Shown here piece by piece: positions 7,511-15,618 of a stretch of 64,000 nt of DNA. The stretch is from contig CAWGAA010000001.1 in NCBI GenBank assembly GCA_963820525.1, positions 1,952,001 through 2,016,000 on the forward strand, written 5' to 3'. Below the pieces are notes generated by a model. The model made no database searches, was not told where the DNA came from, and saw only the letters and a program-made list of their open reading frames with translations. The number at the start of each line of letters is the position of its first letter. Positions within the stretch are counted from its first letter, which is position 1. The stretch comes from an uncultured Spirochaetota bacterium (lineage in GTDB: Bacteria > Spirochaetota > Spirochaetia > SZUA-6 > Fen-1364). A program made the position numbers and the translations under genes.

Positions 7511-8428
7511 ATGAATGTTCTGGACTCTATCGGAAACACGCCACTGATTCAGCTGAGTCGAATCGTGCCAAGTGGCGCCGGCCATATTTTCGTCAAGCTC
7601 GAGATGTGTAATCCAACAGGCAGCATGAAAGACCGCATGGCGCGTGCTGTTATCGAAGCCGCCGAGCACGGGAATCGGCTGACTCCCGGTGGAACGGTTG
7701 TCGAATACACAGGCGGTACGACTGGGATCTCGCTCGCATTCGTCTGTGCTGCGAAGGGATACAGTATAGAGATCGTGTTTTCTGATGCCTTTAGCCCGGA
7801 AAAAGCCCAAATAATGAAGGCGCTGGGAGCTCACGTTACAGTTGTGCCAAGCGGAGGCAAGGGAATCACTCAGAGTGTCATCATGCGAATGATAGAGCAG
7901 GCAAGATCCATCAGCCAAAGGCCAGGCCACTGGTGGTCGGACCAGCTAAACAACAGGGACGCGGTTGGGGCCTATCACGCACTCGGGGAGGAAATCTGGG
8001 AACAAACAAAGGGCAGGGTGGATGCATTCGTTCAAGCCGTAGGTACGGCACATTCAATTCATGGGACAATGGAGGCACTGTCTGGGCATAAGCAGAACAT
8101 TCACGTGGTGGCGGTAGAGCCCGAGGAATCAGCGGTACTCTCTGGCCGCGCACCTGGATCGCACAGCATCGAAGGGTCGGGTATCGGATTTGTGCCCCCT
8201 TTGTGGGAACCAGATAAAGTACACGAGATAATGACGGTCTCCACTCAAGAGGCCGAGGCAATGGCACGGCGGTTGGCGCGAGAAGAGGGGATTTTCGCCG
8301 GCACTTCGTCAGGTGCGAATGTAGTTGCAGCACTTCGACTCGCTGAGCGACTGGGCCCCAAAGCAACCGTTACGACGCTAATGGTTGACTCAGGCCAACG
8401 CTACCTAAGCACTGGCGTGTTTCGGTAG
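7511..8428 (+). CDS. Cassette 5: cysteine synthase-family PLP enzyme
   Basis: IGNTPL, NPTGSMKDR (PLP lysine), GTSSGAN, DSGQRYLST. Confidence 0.9.
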   Translation: MNVLDSIGNTPLIQLSRIVPSGAGHIFVKLEMCNPTGSMKDRMARAVIEAAEHGNRLTPGGTVVEYTGGTTGISLAFVCAAKGYSIEIVFSDAFSPEKAQIMKALGAHVTVVPSGGKGITQSVIMRMIEQARSISQRPGHWWSDQLNNRDAVGAYHALGEEIWEQTKGRVDAFVQAVGTAHSIHGTMEALSGHKQNIHVVAVEPEESAVLSGRAPGSHSIEGSGIGFVPPLWEPDKVHEIMTVSTQEAEAMARRLAREEGIFAGTSSGANVVAALRLAERLGPKATVTTLMVDSGQRYLSTGVFR

Positions 8429-8489
8429 TTCCATATATCGAAGCAGTTGCCGGTTTGCGCCTAACATCTATAACAACGCGTCTGTCAAG

Positions 8490-8651
8490 AAGACGAAAGC
8501 TCCAAAACCTCCTTCGAACACTACTATGATATAGCCGGTCCTACCGGAAACATCTATACGCCCTCATCGGGGCATGATCACCTGCAGCAGGGATGTCACA
8601 ATCAAATCGCGTGCCTGTAGCGGCACATGTTAGGCACGTGCTCACCCCTGC
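8490..8651 (-). ncRNA. Predicted bridge/seek RNA of IS copy 1 (ends approximate)
   Basis: Target loop GCCUAACA-hairpin-GCGAUUUG matches attC; donor loop UAUAGAUG-hairpin-UAUCAU matches the circle junction. Confidence 0.8.
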
Positions 8652-9700
8652 CTCGGTGAGACCTTCAATGGCTCTCGATATGGCTCGTTTTTCTTGAGGA
8701 CCCAAAAGGTGGATTCCGATAGATGACGGGCGAGCGCTCCGATGGCCACAGAGGATCCTTTGCGACCGCGAATCCTCAGATACAGCCTGGAGACGTGGCG
8801 GCCTATCCAGCCGCGCTGTGCGTGGTGCGCTGAGATTGCATTTGCCGCCTCGATGAAGGCCCATTTGAGATATTGATTGCTCTCGGTCCTCATTTTCCCA
8901 TAGTGGCACTTGCCACCGCTGGAGCTCACCCGTGGAGTGGTGCCGCTATAACTGCTGAACTGTGAAGCGGTGCAAAACCGCTCGATGCAACCGACCTCTC
9001 GATCGATAACGATTACCAAAATGTCCCCGACGCCAGGAAGAGTCTTTAGCAGCTGCATGCTGGGGGTTAGCGAGACCTGGCTGCGGATGCGCTCCTCCAA
9101 AGAGGATATCTGAAGGCTGATGAAATCCAGAAGTTGGAGATGTTGTTCCAAGCAGCGAGCTGTCTCCGGGGGAAGCCGGGACACGGCAGAGCTCAACCAT
9201 GATCGTCCCCGCTGTGAGAATACCTGGCAACCATCCTCAGCAGACAAGGCGTACTTGGCAAGGATCGAGTGAATGCGGTTCTTCAAAGACGTTCGCATCC
9301 TGCACAGGACCATTCGTGTGCGAGGCAATTCGCGCTGATCACGTAGGCCAGATGGCGGCAGCCAAACGGTAGGAAGGCTGCCAAGCCTAAGGAGGGTAGC
9401 AAGACCACCGGCGTCCAGTTTATCGGTCTTGTTCACATTTCCCATCAACAGTTTGGCCTTGCCGGGATTTGTTAGCAAAGGAACACACCCTGAAGCTTCG
9501 ATTTCATCAGCAATCCAGTACCAATTGCCTACGCTCTCCAAAGCAACCGGGGTGCCAGAGGGGAGTCGTGAGAAAAAGCAGGAGATGGTTCCCGGAGCAT
9601 GATTGATACGGACTCGATTCAGAACCTTGCCCTTCGGGTCCTGGATCTCGAGCTGAGAGTAGTGCTTATGAGCATCACACCCAACACTCAACGACTGCAT
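8642..9700 (-). CDS. IS110-family DEDD recombinase/transposase
   Basis: GCDAHK, ALES, KTDKLDA, LPGVG, SSGGK; AGGAGG RBS. Confidence 0.95.
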   Translation of the reverse strand: MQSLSVGCDAHKHYSQLEIQDPKGKVLNRVRINHAPGTISCFFSRLPSGTPVALESVGNWYWIADEIEASGCVPLLTNPGKAKLLMGNVNKTDKLDAGGLATLLRLGSLPTVWLPPSGLRDQRELPRTRMVLCRMRTSLKNRIHSILAKYALSAEDGCQVFSQRGRSWLSSAVSRLPPETARCLEQHLQLLDFISLQISSLEERIRSQVSLTPSMQLLKTLPGVGDILVIVIDREVGCIERFCTASQFSSYSGTTPRVSSSGGKCHYGKMRTESNQYLKWAFIEAANAISAHHAQRGWIGRHVSRLYLRIRGRKGSSVAIGALARHLSESTFWVLKKNEPYREPLKVSPRQG

Positions 9701-9969
9701 TCTGCACCTCCTCATGGGCGACGTAGCCCTACGGAGCACAATAGTAGCAAGCGATGCAGCGCTGTTATATTATCAAATCGTTGCAGTTGTCCCCTAGAAA
9801 GCTGTGTCGAACAGCTGATTCAGCCTGGCAATTCCATTGGGTGCAGTGCTGATGCGGCGGGGCAACTGAACTCTATGTTATGAGGCGCAAGTTTTTTTAA
9901 GACGTTTTGCGTCGGCAGCTTGTGCGAATCTAGTCAGTATGATATATACCTTATTTTGGGGGTAATTCC

Positions 9970-11187
9970 ATGATTCACAAGCTATTGCTAAAGAACTTCA
10001 GAGCTATTGAACAACAGGAGATAGAACTTGGAAAAATTTCAATCTTTACTGGTCCCAATAATAGCGGGAAGTCTACTCTTATCTACGGACTTCTCACCCT
10101 CAAAAACATGATTCTCAACTCAAACCAAAGTCTTGATGGTTTTTTGAACCTGGGATTCCTTAGCCTAGGTGGTTTTAGCCAGACAGTTTATTTTAAGGAC
10201 GAGAATAGGCAGATCTCAATAGGTATTGGAAGCAAGACTGAAGAAATATCTTCAGAATATATGGCTACACTTGGAAAAAAAGCAAGTACACTTAATATAC
10301 ATGCACATGAACCATTAGAAATCAGCTTAGATCTCAATGTTACTTTCCCATACCCAGCTAATGCTAGCACAGGTGCAGAGCTACAGACAGACTACGGAAA
10401 GCTCAGCATTACGTGGAATGGTATAACGCCTACGCTAACGGCCGAGAGTGTTGAGGCTGATTTAGTTCCGAAGCAGAAGGAATTGCTCCGCAAAGTTTCG
10501 CTTTCTATAACGAATCCGCTAGAAGAACTAAGATCGGTTGATTTCATTCCTCTTCGACGTGGTTTTATAAAACCTACTTACTCATCTGTTCCCCTACAGG
10601 CGCAACTTCTAAGCGATGAAGAACTCGCAACGCTCCTTGCTACAGATCGTGACTTAGAAGGAAAGGTTGCCTTCTATCTTGAAAAAATCTTGGATCGGAC
10701 TTTTTCTGTCAGGTCAACAATTGGCACTGCAAATTTTGCCCTTCAATCAAGAGATAGAGTAACAGGATTTGTCAGCGACCTTGTTAATGAAGGATTTGGT
10801 ACTAACCAGCTTGTTACAATATTAACAAAGGCTCTACGGAAAGAAGTTTCAACTATCTGCATTGAGGAAATAGAGATCCATTTGCATCCTGAACTCATGA
10901 ACAAAGTAATATCAGTGCTGATCGATATCGCAAACGAAGAGAACAAACAATTTATTATTTCTACTCATAGTGAGCATATTGTTTCTTCAGCTCTAAACCA
11001 TATTTCAACAGGTAAACTTAATAGTAGTGACTTTAAACTTTACTATCTCCACAAGGAAAAGAAGCGTGCAATTGTTGAGCAGCAGATAGTAAATGAAAAA
11101 GGTCAAGTAGAAGGCGGACTTAAAAGTTTCTATGATACAGATCTGAAGAATATTAGAGACTTTTTTAACATCAAAAACGAAAAATAA
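9970..11187 (+). CDS. Cassette 6 gene A: ABC-type ATPase (AAA_15/AAA_21-like, DUF3696-like C-terminus)
   Basis: GPNNSGKS, EGFGTNQ, IEEIEIHLHP, STHS, NEKGQVEG..SFYD. Confidence 0.88.
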   Translation: MIHKLLLKNFRAIEQQEIELGKISIFTGPNNSGKSTLIYGLLTLKNMILNSNQSLDGFLNLGFLSLGGFSQTVYFKDENRQISIGIGSKTEEISSEYMATLGKKASTLNIHAHEPLEISLDLNVTFPYPANASTGAELQTDYGKLSITWNGITPTLTAESVEADLVPKQKELLRKVSLSITNPLEELRSVDFIPLRRGFIKPTYSSVPLQAQLLSDEELATLLATDRDLEGKVAFYLEKILDRTFSVRSTIGTANFALQSRDRVTGFVSDLVNEGFGTNQLVTILTKALRKEVSTICIEEIEIHLHPELMNKVISVLIDIANEENKQFIISTHSEHIVSSALNHISTGKLNSSDFKLYYLHKEKKRAIVEQQIVNEKGQVEGGLKSFYDTDLKNIRDFFNIKNEK

Positions 11188-11654
11188 TGAACCTCGTTGT
11201 CAATGAGTGGCTACTCGAGTTTTTTTTGCCAGGTACACTTCCAGAGAATTATGAAGAGCTTTTTAGGTTTTTTGACAGTGTTCAAGAATGCAAACGTAAA
11301 ATAATAATTGGACGGGAGACACAATTCACTATTAAATTCTACCGTTTCATGAAATTATATGGCAATAATCTATCATTCAAGCAGAATTACGTTAAACTCC
11401 ATCGACTTTTATTTATCGACACTACCCGTACAATTATAGTTGAAAGACATGAAATTAAAAATATTCCTGATAAAGATATGGAAGGTGTTCATAGTGATGA
11501 TCGCTATCTACTTGAGCTTGCAGCCTCAGTTCCTAACAGTATAATTATATCAACTGATAATCGGCTTATAGATGCATTAGCAAGAATGCCACAATACCCA
11601 ATTATTCATTTGAAGGATTATTTAAAAACTTTCAATGAAAAAGGATGTGAATGA
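11187..11654 (+). CDS. Cassette 6 gene B: PIN-like domain protein
   Basis: N-terminal LVVNE strand, DDRYLLELA, IIISTD; TAATG overlap with gene A. Confidence 0.6.
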   Translation: MNLVVNEWLLEFFLPGTLPENYEELFRFFDSVQECKRKIIIGRETQFTIKFYRFMKLYGNNLSFKQNYVKLHRLLFIDTTRTIIVERHEIKNIPDKDMEGVHSDDRYLLELAASVPNSIIISTDNRLIDALARMPQYPIIHLKDYLKTFNEKGCE

Positions 11655-11659
11655 GCGCC

Positions 11660-11777
11660 TCATAACATGCTGTTGGAGTTGACCCCTTAGATTACGTTTG
11701 GAAAGTCTTAGATTACGCTGCTAAACTGCCGCTTACCTGCTTCGTGCGGCGGGGGCAACTCAACAGCGTCGTTATGT
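11660..11777 (+). repeat. attC6 (118 bp)
   Basis: TCATAAC-ATGCT-GTTGGAGTTG...CAACTCAAC-AGCGTC-GTTATGT. Confidence 0.95.
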
Positions 11778-11966
11778 GGCGTTGGCGCCGAAGGCAAGGT
11801 GTCCATGCGCTCCAGCCGGTGAACATGCTGGCGGCGGAGATCTTACACTTTGCGGTGGCAGACGGGAATGATCTACTTCGCGGAAATTGGGCCGTCGCAT
11901 CGCATCGACCATCAGGCCGACGCGGAGGTCTGCGCTCTCATGCCGGATTTGTCGGGGAGGTGACAA

Positions 11967-12626
11967 GTGAGCGACCTATACAAGAAGCGATTCGCAGAGC
12001 TTCAGCTACAGATGGAGCAGCTTCTCGCCTCAAAGAAGTCGGCTTTCGACGAGTACCTACATAAGACTCGCGAGGAGATTGATGGCAATCTCCTACTCGA
12101 GTGGACGGTGAAAACAAGAAGCCTGATTGGCAAGGCGTGCGGAATGGAATCGGAACACTACAAGGAGTTCTCTGAGAACGATGCCACAGGCGCGTACAGT
12201 ACTTACCTAGCCACGCTCGAACGTCTTCGGGCAATCTTCCTTGCCGCAAAGGAAGATTACGAAGGCGGGTATCTGAGGACCACCAGATCACTCGTACAGG
12301 CGGACCTTTTCGACTCCGAACTGGAGCAGGCGACGTCACTGATTGACGCTGGCTACAGGCTACCTGCTGCTGTCGTGGCTGGAGTGGTCTTGGAGACGTC
12401 ACTCAGAGAGCTCTGTACACGGGAAGGGCTGCCGCACGGAAAACTTGATAAAATGAATTCGGATCTGGCCAAAGCTGGAAAGTACAACGTACTCCAGCAG
12501 AAGCGAATCACTGCGCTCGCAGATATCAGAAACGCAGCTGCTCACGGCAATCCTGAGAATTTCACTGATCAAGACGTGATAGACATGATTCGAGATGTCA
12601 AACGGTTTCTGGCTGAACACGCGTGA
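11967..12626 (+). CDS. Cassette 7: DUF4145/HEPN-like protein
   Basis: AAVVAGVVLE helix and Rx4H motif RNAAAH; GGAGG RBS with GTG start. Confidence 0.8.
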   Translation: MSDLYKKRFAELQLQMEQLLASKKSAFDEYLHKTREEIDGNLLLEWTVKTRSLIGKACGMESEHYKEFSENDATGAYSTYLATLERLRAIFLAAKEDYEGGYLRTTRSLVQADLFDSELEQATSLIDAGYRLPAAVVAGVVLETSLRELCTREGLPHGKLDKMNSDLAKAGKYNVLQQKRITALADIRNAAAHGNPENFTDQDVIDMIRDVKRFLAEHA

Positions 12627-12728
12627 TGCGGACGCGTGATTCGTTGAGCAGCAAATGGGTCATTCAGCGAAGAAGCGACTTTTGCAGCCCAAGCGCCACA
12701 TAACATCTATAACAACGCGTCTGTCAAG

Positions 12729-12890
12729 AAGACGAAAGCTCCAAAACCTCCTTCGAACACTACTATGATATAGCCGGTCCTACCGGAAACATCTATACGC
12801 CCTCATCGGGGCATGATCACCTGCAGCAGGGATGTCACAATCAAATCGCGTGCCTGTAGCGGCACATGTTATGCACGTGCTCACCCCTGC
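12729..12890 (-). ncRNA. Predicted bridge/seek RNA of IS copy 2 (ends approximate)
   Basis: Same as copy 1 except target guide GCAUAACA (T at 12872 vs G at 8633). Confidence 0.78.
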
Positions 12891-13798
12891 CTCGGTGAGA
12901 CCTTCAATGGCTCTCGATATGGCTCGTTTTTCTTGAGGACCCAAAAGGTGGATTCCGATAGATGACGGGCGAGCGCTCCGATGGCCACAGAGGATCCTTT
13001 GCGACCGCGAATCCTCAGATACAGCCTGGAGACGTGGCGGCCTATCCAGCCGCGCTGTGCGTGGTGCGCTGAGATTGCATTTGCCGCCTCGATGAAGGCC
13101 CATTTGAGATACTGATTGCTCTCGGTCCTCATTTTCCCATAGTGGCACTTGCCACCGCTGGAGCTCACCCGTGGAGTGGTGCCGCTATAACTGCTGAACT
13201 GTGAAGCGGTGCAAAACCGCTCGATGCAACCGACCTCTCGATCGATAACGATTGCCAAAATGTCCCCGACGCCAGGAAGAGTCTTTAGTAGCTGCATGCT
13301 GGGGGTTAGCGAGACCTGGCTGCGGATGCGCTCCTCCAAAGAGGATATCTGAAGGCTGATGAAATCCAGAAGTTGGAGATGTTGTTCCAAGCAGCGAGCT
13401 GTCTCCGGGGGAAGCCGGGACACGGCAGAGCTCAACCATGATCGTCCCCGCTGTGAGAATACCTGGCAACCATCCTCAGCAGACAAGGCGTACTTGGCAA
13501 GGATCGAGTGAATGCGGTTCTTCAAAGACGTTCGCATCCTGCACAGGACCATTCGTGTGCGAGGCAATTCGCGCTGATCACGTAGGCCAGCTGGAGGCAG
13601 CCAAACGGTAGGAAGGCTGCCAAGCCTAAGGAGGGTAGCAAGACCACCGGCGTCCAGTTTATCGGTCTTGTTCACATTTCCCATCAACAGTTTGGCCTTG
13701 CCGGGATTTGTTAGCAAAGGAACACACCCTGAAGCTGGACCTACCCCGATTTCATAGACACATGGTTAAGCAGTATTTTAGAGGGGTAAGGAAAGGCA

Positions 13799-14089
13799 AT
13801 GGCAGACACGAGGAAGAAATACACCAAAGAGTTCAAGCTCGATGCCATCCGGCTCCTGGAGTCAGGGACAAAGCCGGGACATGAGATTGAACGGGATCTG
13901 GGAATCGGCAGCGGACAGATCTACCGCTGGAGGAAGCAATTCAGTGAGGACGGGACACGAGCTTTCCCAGGCAACGGCAGGTCCCGTGACGAGGAATTGG
14001 CCGCCTTGCGCAAAGAGAACAAGGAGTTGCGTGAGGAACGGGACATTTTAAGAAAAGCAACAGCCATCTTCTCCAGACCCCCGAGATGA
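13799..14089 (+). CDS. IS3 transposase OrfA
   Basis: RKKYTKEFKLDA HTH, leucine-zipper tail ERDILRKA. Confidence 0.93.
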   Translation: MADTRKKYTKEFKLDAIRLLESGTKPGHEIERDLGIGSGQIYRWRKQFSEDGTRAFPGNGRSRDEELAALRKENKELREERDILRKATAIFSRPPR

Positions 14090-14955
14090 AGTACCAGATC
14101 ATGAGTAAACAGCGGGGAACCCACGGCGTGGAGAAGATGGCGGAAGTATTGGGAGTAGCGCGCAGTGGGTACTATGCCTGGCTCGACGGTAAAGAGAGTG
14201 CACGAGCACTCGAGGAGAAGGAGCTGATCGAGCAGATCCGGAAGATCCAGGGCGAGGTGCGTCACAGCTACGGAAGCCCGCGCATGCGGGAAGAACTGCT
14301 GAGGCGTGGGCGGCATGTGGGGAAGAACCGAGTTGCCCGAATCATGAGAGAGAATGCCCTTGGGCCGCAGCCGAAGAGGCGGTTTGTAGTGACCACGCAC
14401 TCGAAAGACGGCCAGGAAGTGGCCGAAAACATAGTGAACAGGAACTTCGAAGCCTCCGCGGCGAATCGCGTGTGGGTGTCCGACATAACCTACGTTGCGA
14501 CAGCCGAAGGGTGGATGTATTTATGCATCGTACTGGATCTGTACTCACGTCGAGTGGCGGGCTGGTCGCTGAGCTGCGAGCTGAGTGCCGAGCTGGTGCT
14601 GACGGCGGTAGTCATGGCCGCGATTCGTCGCCGCCCGCCGCGGGGACTGTTGTTTCATTCCGATCGCGGTGTGCAGTATACCAGCGGTCAGTTTGAAAAG
14701 TTTGCCAAAGGGCACGGATTCATTCAAAGCATGAGCCGTAAGGGCGACTGTTGGGACAACGCGTGCGCGGAGACGTTTTTCAAGACCTTGAGAGCAGAGT
14801 TGATTCGGGACAAGATCTACCGAAGCAGAGAGGAGGCCAGGAGAGCAATATTCGAATACGTGGAGATCTTCTATAATCGCAAGCGGCTTCACTCGTACCT
14901 CGGCTACCTCACACCGACCGAATATGAGGAGCTCGAGGAGCGGAAGACGGCATGA
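14086..14955 (+). CDS. IS3 transposase OrfB (DDE)
   Basis: [26 protein letters not shown] overlap with orfA. Confidence 0.95.
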
Positions 14956-15618
14956 TTGACGATCCAAGCCAGAGTGAGGAAAAAGCCTTGCGCGTAGAGG
15001 GCCGTGGTTGCGTTTTCGGAAGGCAGGTGGTGTTTGGATACCCCCCCGAAACCGAGACGCAGGTGCAATTCAGGGTGTCCACGAAATCGGGGGAACTCCA
15101 AGCTTCGATTTCATCAGCAATCCAGTACCAATTGCCTACGCTCTCCAAAGCAACCGGGGTGCCAGGGGGGAGTCGTGAGAAAAAGCAGGAGATGGTTCCC
15201 GGAGCATGATACGGACTCGATTCAGAACCTTGCCCTTCGGGTCCTGGATCTCGAGCTGAGAGTAGTGCTTATGAGCATCACACCCAACACTCAACGACTG
15301 CATTCTGCACCTCCTCATGGGCGACGTAGCCCTACGGAGCACAATAGTAGCAAGCGATGCAGCGCTATTATATTATCAAATCGTTGGAGCAGTCGCCTTG
15401 GACGCCCGTCGGAACTGTTGGTTCAGACCCGTAAGGAAGACCGATCTGTGGTTGTAGTCGGCGGCGCTGCTCAACTCTATGTTATCTGGACTTGCTGGCG
15501 TTCCCCTGACCGCCGGTGAACCTCGGCGCCGTCTTCGACTGACCTCACGCTCCCCTTCTGGGTACCATATCGAAAGGTTGGCGAAACGTTCGTTTGACAA
15601 GTGAAAAGGAGGATGTGC

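Follow-up and report, generated by a model that had tools for sequence, protein, structure and literature searches.

Can the guide RNA of a natural insertion sequence be seen to change one base at a time, so that two nearly identical copies come to rest at two different targets? The question is raised by a stretch of 64,000 nucleotides (the window) from an uncultured Spirochaetota bacterium (GenBank assembly GCA_963820525.1, contig CAWGAA010000001.1, positions 1,952,001 to 2,016,000), which holds a small integron cassette array with four unoccupied attC sites (4604, 5451, 7338 and 11660; RYYTAAC-ATGCT-GTTGGAG) and two further attC sites, each interrupted by one copy of the same insertion sequence (IS). 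The original prediction, made from the letters alone, was that the copies are RNA-guided IS1111-type elements directed at attC and that the single base distinguishing their putative guides captures retargeting between two attC R'' boxes, by point mutation plus selection or, more speculatively, by target-templated rewriting of the guide. The family of the element, the structure of its RNA, the complementarity of guide and flank, and the insertion point are established here; for the two-copy pattern itself, a point change in the guide combined with guide-directed choice of site has in our estimate an even chance of being the explanation.

An attC-targeting IS1111-type element and its guide RNA

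The bases and match counts on which the prediction was built were all reproduced when the sequence was re-read. Copy 1 carries tgttaggc on the plus strand at 8628-8635, which is GCCTAACA on the minus strand, and its flank at 8459-8466 also reads GCCTAACA (8/8 match); copy 2 carries tgttatgc at 12867-12874, minus strand GCATAACA, and has the flank ACATAACA at 12698-12705 (7/8 match), the lone mismatch, at the seventh of the eight positions, being an RNA G that faces a DNA T as a wobble pair. Against the copy 2 site, the copy 1 guide scores 6/8. At a fixed offset of 4239, the shared part of the copies (8462-9497) differs only at 8633, 8873, 9015, 9050, 9352 and 9356, and G8633/T12872 is therefore the sole difference within the 175-nt non-coding end (8467-8641), as had been claimed. 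The other element end holds two more substitutions and a 4-base gap between the copies, which are 99.4% identical.

Both copies are IS1111-type elements of the IS110 family, as judged from transposase domains, non-coding ends, terminal repeats and conservative insertion. The copy 1 transposase (P0001) matched the Pfam families PF01548, DEDD_Tnp_IS110 (E 8e-13, 48.8 bits, cutoff 29) and PF02371, Transposase_20 (E 4e-17, 62.8 bits, cutoff 21.3). The longer of the two non-coding stretches follows the gene (175 nt between its stop codon and the right end vs approximately 73 nt, 9701-9773, between the left end and the start), and sub-terminal inverted repeats of about 7-11 bases, set back from the tips, are found at both ends (left TATAACAGCGC, right GCGTTGTTATA), those of relatives reading TATGAAAGCGCTGC / GCAGCGCTTTCATA. 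The reverse complement of R'' (GTTRRRY) stands directly after the right end in both window copies and in 27 of the 46 unique relatives with a readable guide and flank. The transposase domains, together with the RNA structure, the guide-flank tests and the insertion point described below, support the predicted assignment as an RNA-guided, attC-targeting IS1111-type element.

The insertion point was defined by comparison with an unoccupied attC of the same genome and the same subtype as the occupied sites (C3:855605), which reads GCATAACAAATCGTTGCAG. The occupied sites run ...AACA, then the IS, then ...CAAATCG, vs GCATAACAAATCG in the unoccupied site, with the core CA on both sides of the element; in copy 1 the 2-base crossover core is made up of the final C of R'' and A8466, that is CA, or TG in element orientation. 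Read in this way, the event is a simple conservative insertion at the CA joining R'' to the spacer, without a classical target duplication, and the target is a 13-base word consisting of R'', A and AATCG. A candidate right boundary at 9795, with a GAT or GA core, was overturned by the unoccupied attC of the same spacer class, which places it at 9775 with the core TG.

Relatives of the element were drawn from 60 related genomes (9 with matches) and from a scan of species-representative genomes that gave 59 loci, mostly in metagenome bins, with hosts in Spirochaetota, Chloroflexota, Actinomycetota, Acidobacteriota and Aminicenantes. Iterated nhmmer searches with the non-coding end over all loci returned 67 hits, 46 of them distinct and near full length; the guides and ends were taken from this alignment and from a search for ends based on the guide C of each element (see below), and 32 of the 46 were aligned for RNAalifold, those with long inserts or long gaps being left out. 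A family-level genome search (25 genomes, 9 matching) brought no new copies, and a metagenome scan with a 16-base guide B pattern gave at least 120 stretches, none of those listed resembling the non-coding end beyond the pattern itself.

The RNA region opens in the final transposase codons and comprises two internal-loop modules followed by a hairpin. The RNAalifold consensus contains 26 pairs, 19 of them with compensatory changes, in the order base stem, second stem (short), internal loop, hairpin cap and second module; single-sequence folds of both window copies gave the same first module, with modest z-scores of -1.5 and -2.0. Position 8633 lies within the unpaired 5' strand of loop 1. No Rfam 15 family reached its gathering score within the window, and whether Rfam models IS1111 RNAs was left unchecked; three RNA runs contained 0.08-0.12 of the sampled words.

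Three guide strands were recognised in these loops. Guide A makes up the 5' side of loop 1 and is complementary to the core and the adjoining right flank (TGTTAGGC in element orientation). In the 46 unique elements it was complementary to its own right flank at 339 of 460 positions vs 242.8 in permuted pairings, a value reached by 0 of 5000 permutations, and in the 19 elements with non-attC targets at 135 of 190 positions (83.9 expected). In these non-attC relatives the strand reads quite differently yet still fits its flank (GAAAATCC, ATGTAAATT, CATGCGAGG, ATGATATTC and CATGGGGAAA). Since it is complementary to the adjoining DNA in 46 relatives, this strand is a genuine seekRNA/bridge-RNA-type target guide; the proposal that GCCUAACA is a true target guide is thus upheld, by an internal loop with compensatory changes and by flank complementarity over relatives with diverse targets. 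Its description as a 'left' guide holds for the plus strand of the window and fails in element orientation, where it is the right-flank (5') guide.

Guide B, which forms the other (3') side of loop 1, is same-sense with the left-flank bases CGATT, with the core TG and with the two bases that open the element; over the 6 bases preceding the core it agreed with the flank at 84 of 138 positions vs 36.4 permuted (0 of 5000 permutations; 23 unique rows, three of which, having no identified left end, were scored 0). Guide C, in the second loop, is likewise same-sense, here with TATAGA of the right element end, with the core TG and with the two flank bases that come next, and resembles a donor guide; its 7-base word recurs at the right end of its own element in most relatives, the two co-varying (ATAGATG, ATACATG, AGAGACG, ATGGATG, AGATATG).

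Two further features of the relatives were noted. In eight loci (L027, L035, L050, L066, L072-L074 and L076) an extra GC-rich hairpin of 20-45 bases is present just before guide C in the second loop. Four others (L009, L018, L021 and L022, in genomes G007 and G002) are right-end remnants at attC-like flanks, i.e. solo non-coding ends; a transposase gene was undetectable in these loci, and L009 and L021 also have no guide A.

The guide letter facing the third R'' base

The letter that separates the two copies is not peculiar to them. The guide words GCCTAAC and GCATAAC both occur among relatives. In four of four metagenome runs, from four studies, contigs on 8380-8760 carried both G and T at 8633, with T depth/total depth of 2.8/12.5, 70.2/120.7, 18.2/26.3 and 105.3/162.3, and the other letters of 8628-8635 showed no variation in these runs. 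As both letters occur in all four, the difference is a standing polymorphism of the element family and not private to copy 2. The run contigs break inside the element and are too short to tie the guide letter to a flank; one contig record (X2 record 1, 8456-8760), with G at 8633, departs from the window upstream of 8456 with GCCTAAC kept. We take it for a further concordant insertion with the C guide, but the study it stems from is also that of the likely source sample.

The targets on offer to the two alleles were surveyed with an attC pattern having a 5-base spacer, which found 174 unoccupied sites genome-wide, nearly all in one stretch (C1) and with a few subtypes repeating. At the third R'' base these sites carry A (118), G (31), C (24) or T (1), and at the first base 166 have A or G. 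Full pairing is possible for the A allele with 24 R'' boxes (ACATAAC 16, GCATAAC 8) and for the C allele with 9 (GCCTAAC 8, ACCTAAC 1). The spacer word AAATCG is present at the sites of both copies, yet in only 1 of the 174 unoccupied sites, and the placing of both copies in this spacer class fits the left guide; the genome holds three sites of the required class, one with R'' GCCTAAC and two with xCATAAC. The C1 stretch corresponds to a very large cassette array outside the window (about 683,764-824,261, roughly 140 kb), and smaller arrays are situated on C3 (about 828,871-860,699) and C2 (about 54,093).

Under the explanation that combines a point change in the guide with guide-directed choice of site, the IS1111-type element would recognise integron attC via an RNA that its 3' non-coding end encodes. 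In loop 1, the 5' strand would pair with the top strand over the core TG and the right flank (the R'' reverse complement), and the 3' strand (CGAUUUG), which has the sense of the left flank and core, with the bottom strand; the second loop matches the element's own right end, and conservative insertion at the CA between R'' and spacer leaves the core on both sides. Position 8633 is a C/A polymorphism located in the guide opposite the third R'' base; most probably it was produced by an ordinary point change, with each variant tending toward the site with which it pairs: the C guide toward GCCTAAC and the A guide toward ACATAAC, the latter with a far-end G-T wobble. The preference is not strict, a single mismatch in the guide's far half being often tolerated. 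We infer production of the RNA and its binding by the transposase, as well as an influence of the guide letter on the choice between the two sites.

The rival to be weighed most carefully is coincidence, in which a mismatch so far along the guide has little effect, the C/A letter is free to drift or flip and the concordance of the two copies is luck; we consider this a serious contender that falls a little short of an even chance. A simple null seems to disfavour it, since with 8 random substitutions over 1309 bases the chance of a flank-matching change at either guide position where the flanks differ is about 0.004, but the figure is too favourable to the pattern, 8633 being a common polymorphism. 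By arithmetic from site and family counts, one C copy and one A copy would both be concordant by chance in 0.3-0.4 of cases: random placement among the three sites of the spacer class gives 1/3, and the family-wide rates of 17/21 and 3/6 have a product of approximately 0.4. Several further observations weigh on the same side, against guide-directed choice. Among 27 unique attC-targeting elements, including both window copies, the guide position facing the third R'' base matched its flank in 20 (16.9 expected, p 0.10; 2x2 table 17/3/3/3, Fisher p 0.11), and after removal of the window copies in 18 of 25 (16.2 expected, p 0.25, Fisher 0.27). No guide-flank association was detected at guide position 7 in the 27 elements, and positions 4-7 combined gave 83 of 108 matches vs 78.0 (p 0.056). 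On a guide-masked tree the letter has switched 6 times or more, and in four independent pairs on well-supported branches the flank changed the same way in about 1.5, the opposite way in 1.1 and not at all in 1.4 (sign test p 1). Individual loci also depart from the expected pairing: L012 and L007, truncated to the C-terminal gene end, have a C guide at T sites; L072 and L076, whose transposase genes are full length, sit at G sites with an A guide; and between L072 and L073/L074 of the same genome this guide letter differs with no corresponding change in the flank. The 13-base word of the unoccupied site C3:855605 (GCATAACAAATCG) matches the copy 2 guide pair perfectly and carries no insertion, and copy 2 is dead, so its guide change could postdate inactivation. 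True mismatches are moreover common in the family, since with a 7-base guide 12 of the 27 elements pair fully (wobble allowed), 12 retain one true mismatch and 3 two or more, i.e. at least one in 15.

Set against coincidence, all six close-clade copies that keep at least half of the transposase gene (the two window copies, L002, L003, L004 and L005) show guide-flank agreement (6/6). Guide position 4 is associated with the flank (22 of 27 vs 18.5, p 0.02), the position facing the variable R'' base is the only one of the 8-base guide to vary in the metagenome runs, and in IS621 screens, as given in the portion of PMC11208160 available to us, single mismatches in the target-binding loop are tolerated poorly. 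The claim that the pair captures retargeting found no significant backing when more copies were examined (18 of 25, and about 1.5 of four tree pairs), and it is not refuted either, because the association test has low power. Position 4 was also seen to take all four bases (CCTAAC, CCCAAC, CCGAAC and CCAAAC) within one sub-lineage from Chloroflexia and Actinomycetota bins (L026-L030, L027 and L050), where two of the states agree with the flank (L026/L029/L030; the second L028 element) and the other two, in L027 and L050, disagree with it.

Point change with guide-directed choice has also to be set beside the second mechanism of the original prediction, in which guide DNA is corrected to the new flank during or after insertion. 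The concordance of the two window copies speaks for this, and guide DNA and flank do form an inverted repeat of 8-9 bases about 165 bases apart, through which single-stranded pairing could speculatively take place. The idea is contradicted by the non-pairing mismatches that 15 of the 27 elements retain with their own flanks, by the far position of copy 2, where G is kept opposite T when the flank calls for A, and by L035 vs L037/L034, whose difference at guide position 7 runs counter to that of their flanks; a recombination step of the IS110 family that alters guide DNA is not described in the portions of PMC11208160 and PMC11187229 available to us, and we hold rewriting to be extremely improbable. 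Scarcely more probable is that the segment is no guide at all and represents an attC-like fragment in the non-coding end, or one arm of a plain stem CGUGCCU/AGGCACG. The copy 1 guide could indeed form 7 pairs with the downstream AGGCACG, but this alternative stem is not kept in relatives (L012 has GAGCCU) and was ruled out for that lack of conservation, the conserved hairpin is GUGCC/GGCAC with compensatory changes, and the strand tracks very different flanks in the non-attC relatives.

A further view, which goes beyond point change with guide-directed choice and which we regard as unlikely though worth stating, is that the C/A letter is a maintained two-allele state tracking the main R'' classes xCCTAAC and xCATAAC. 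The far-end G would accommodate G as well as A at the first R'' base through wobble pairing, single-base switching would recur in separate sub-lineages, and both alleles would persist in natural populations. The R'' base counts, the wobble and the numbers of boxes paired by each allele (24 vs 9) together make such a maintained guide plausible.

Layout and state of the two copies

The coordinates of the element copies and their parts are collected in Table 1. The transposase gene of copy 1 looks intact, and the remainder of the attC downstream of this copy has the same layout as the unoccupied attC sites. In copy 2, transposase residues 69-352, encoded in the right part, share 99.3% identity with P0001, and on the left side the core CA (15377-15378) is followed by AATC and the L'' box GTTGGAG. 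Copy 2 is dead because of an IS3-family insertion and a 4-base deletion in its transposase gene. The inserted element contains an HTH_Tnp_1 open reading frame (ORF; 13799-14089) and an rve ORF (14086-14955) by Pfam, and its exact ends, set by the TG...CA convention, are probable. A third copy was not found by blastn in the whole 5.05-Mb genome, which contains the two window copies only.

Table 1. Features of the two element copies and their attC sites (positions in the window).
Feature	Position	Strand	Basis or remark
R'' box GCCTAAC, attC of copy 1	8459..8465	+	sequence; compared with the same-subtype unoccupied attC G000:C3:855605 (GCATAACAAATCGTTGCAG)
IS copy 1, 1309 bp counting one core copy (CA 9774-9775)	8467..9775	-	repeat with copy 2; unoccupied attC comparison
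-35-like hexamer TTGACA near right end	8483..8488	-	read from sequence
Structured non-coding RNA region (seekRNA/bridge-RNA type)	8534..8653	-	RNAalifold, 32 relatives
Guide C UAUAGAUGUU, second loop	8549..8558	-	
Guide B CGAUUUGAU, loop 1 3' strand	8601..8609	-	
Guide A UGCCUAACA, loop 1 5' strand	8628..8636	-	variable base 8633 = C in RNA
Transposase gene, 352 aa (P0001), DEDD type	8642..9700	-	translation; Pfam
Remainder of copy 1 attC: spacer rest AATC, L'' GTTGCAG (9780-9786), to R' GTTATGA (9877-9883)	9776..9883	+	
R'' box ACATAAC, attC of copy 2; core CA 12704-12705	12698..12704	+	
Copy 2 right part: non-coding end and 3' four fifths of transposase gene	12706..13735	-	
Copy 2 guide A	12867..12875	-	T12872 = A in RNA
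IS3-family element inside copy 2 transposase gene, about 1365 bp	13736..15100	+	TG...CA ends, apparent 3-base duplication AGC
Copy 2 left part: transposase 5' end with 4-base deletion, and left end	15101..15378	-	

The hexamer TTGACA near the right end stands 17 bases from GATAAT at the left end (9769-9774) only when the ends are joined as a circle, and TTGAC is kept at this right-end position in nearly all listed relatives. Junction promoters have been reported for the IS1111-type family, and TTGACA/GATAAT is probably such a promoter on the circular form.

Among the cassettes next to the copies, that between them (9970-11654) encodes a 405-aa ATPase with AAA_15/AAA_21 domains (family name 'AbiEii-like') and an overlapping 155-aa ORF without a Pfam match, and looks like a two-gene defence-type cassette. 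An ORF of 219 aa at 11967-12626 gave a weak HEPN (RiboL-PSP) match of 24.7 bits, below the curated cutoff of 28.4.

Implications and comparison with known systems

RNA-guided IS110/IS1111 recombinases are under development as programmable tools for genome insertion, and the natural tolerance of their guides and the base-by-base evolution of guides are of practical interest. The locus offers a fully worked natural case of attC targeting, with an RNA of two loops, TG as the core, a target of 13 bases (R'' plus spacer) and wobble pairing at the far end, in a lineage far from the clinical Proteobacteria elements, and natural insertions in the family frequently have a single mismatch in the guide's far half. 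The IS1111-attC group (ISPst6, ISKpn4, ISPa21) was reportedly described by Tetu and Holmes in 2008 and by Post and Hall in 2009. A search of 72,556 plasmid records for relatives gave a best tblastn transposase identity of 33.6%, and close kinship with ISPst6, ISKpn4 and ISPa21 is therefore unlikely.

In the portions of the two principal papers available to us, the attC-targeting IS1111 members ISKpn4, ISPst6 and ISPa25 are described as using a seekRNA in which the top-strand match lies 5' of the bottom-strand match, the two matches overlapping at the insertion point (PMC11187229), the bridge RNA as having target and donor loops around a 2-base core (PMC11208160), and natural covariation of guide and target with zero to two mismatches has already been published (PMC11208160). 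Since the mechanism is already in print (PMC11187229), the locus adds detail and not a new principle. The R'' words were not found in those supplements of PMC11187229 that were at hand (files 1 and 5 excepted), and a single-base guide polymorphism at attC is apparently undescribed in the literature searched on bridge RNA/attC and seekRNA/integron.

Compared within the same limits, the window element resembles the IS1111-attC group (ISPst6, ISKpn4, ISPa21 and ISPa25; Siddiquee et al. 2024, PMC11187229) in its DEDD transposase, long downstream non-coding end, sub-terminal repeats and insertion at one end of attC in one orientation, and differs in its hosts, which are not Proteobacteria but Spirochaetota, Chloroflexota, Actinomycetota and others known only from metagenome bins. 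With IS621 of the IS110 group (Durrant et al. 2024, PMC11208160) it shares an RNA of two loops, one for the target sides around the core and one for the element's own ends; in IS621, however, the RNA is encoded ahead of the gene, in the left end, its guides come in the opposite order and the core is CT, whereas that of the window element is TG. A published parallel to the pair of copies is that of ISEc11 and ISXne4 (PMC11187229), likewise related elements whose guide stretches and targets differ accordingly. In that pair whole stretches are replaced, 3 of 13 target bases are shared and the transposases are 72% identical, whereas in the window a single guide base differs between copies that are 99.4% identical.

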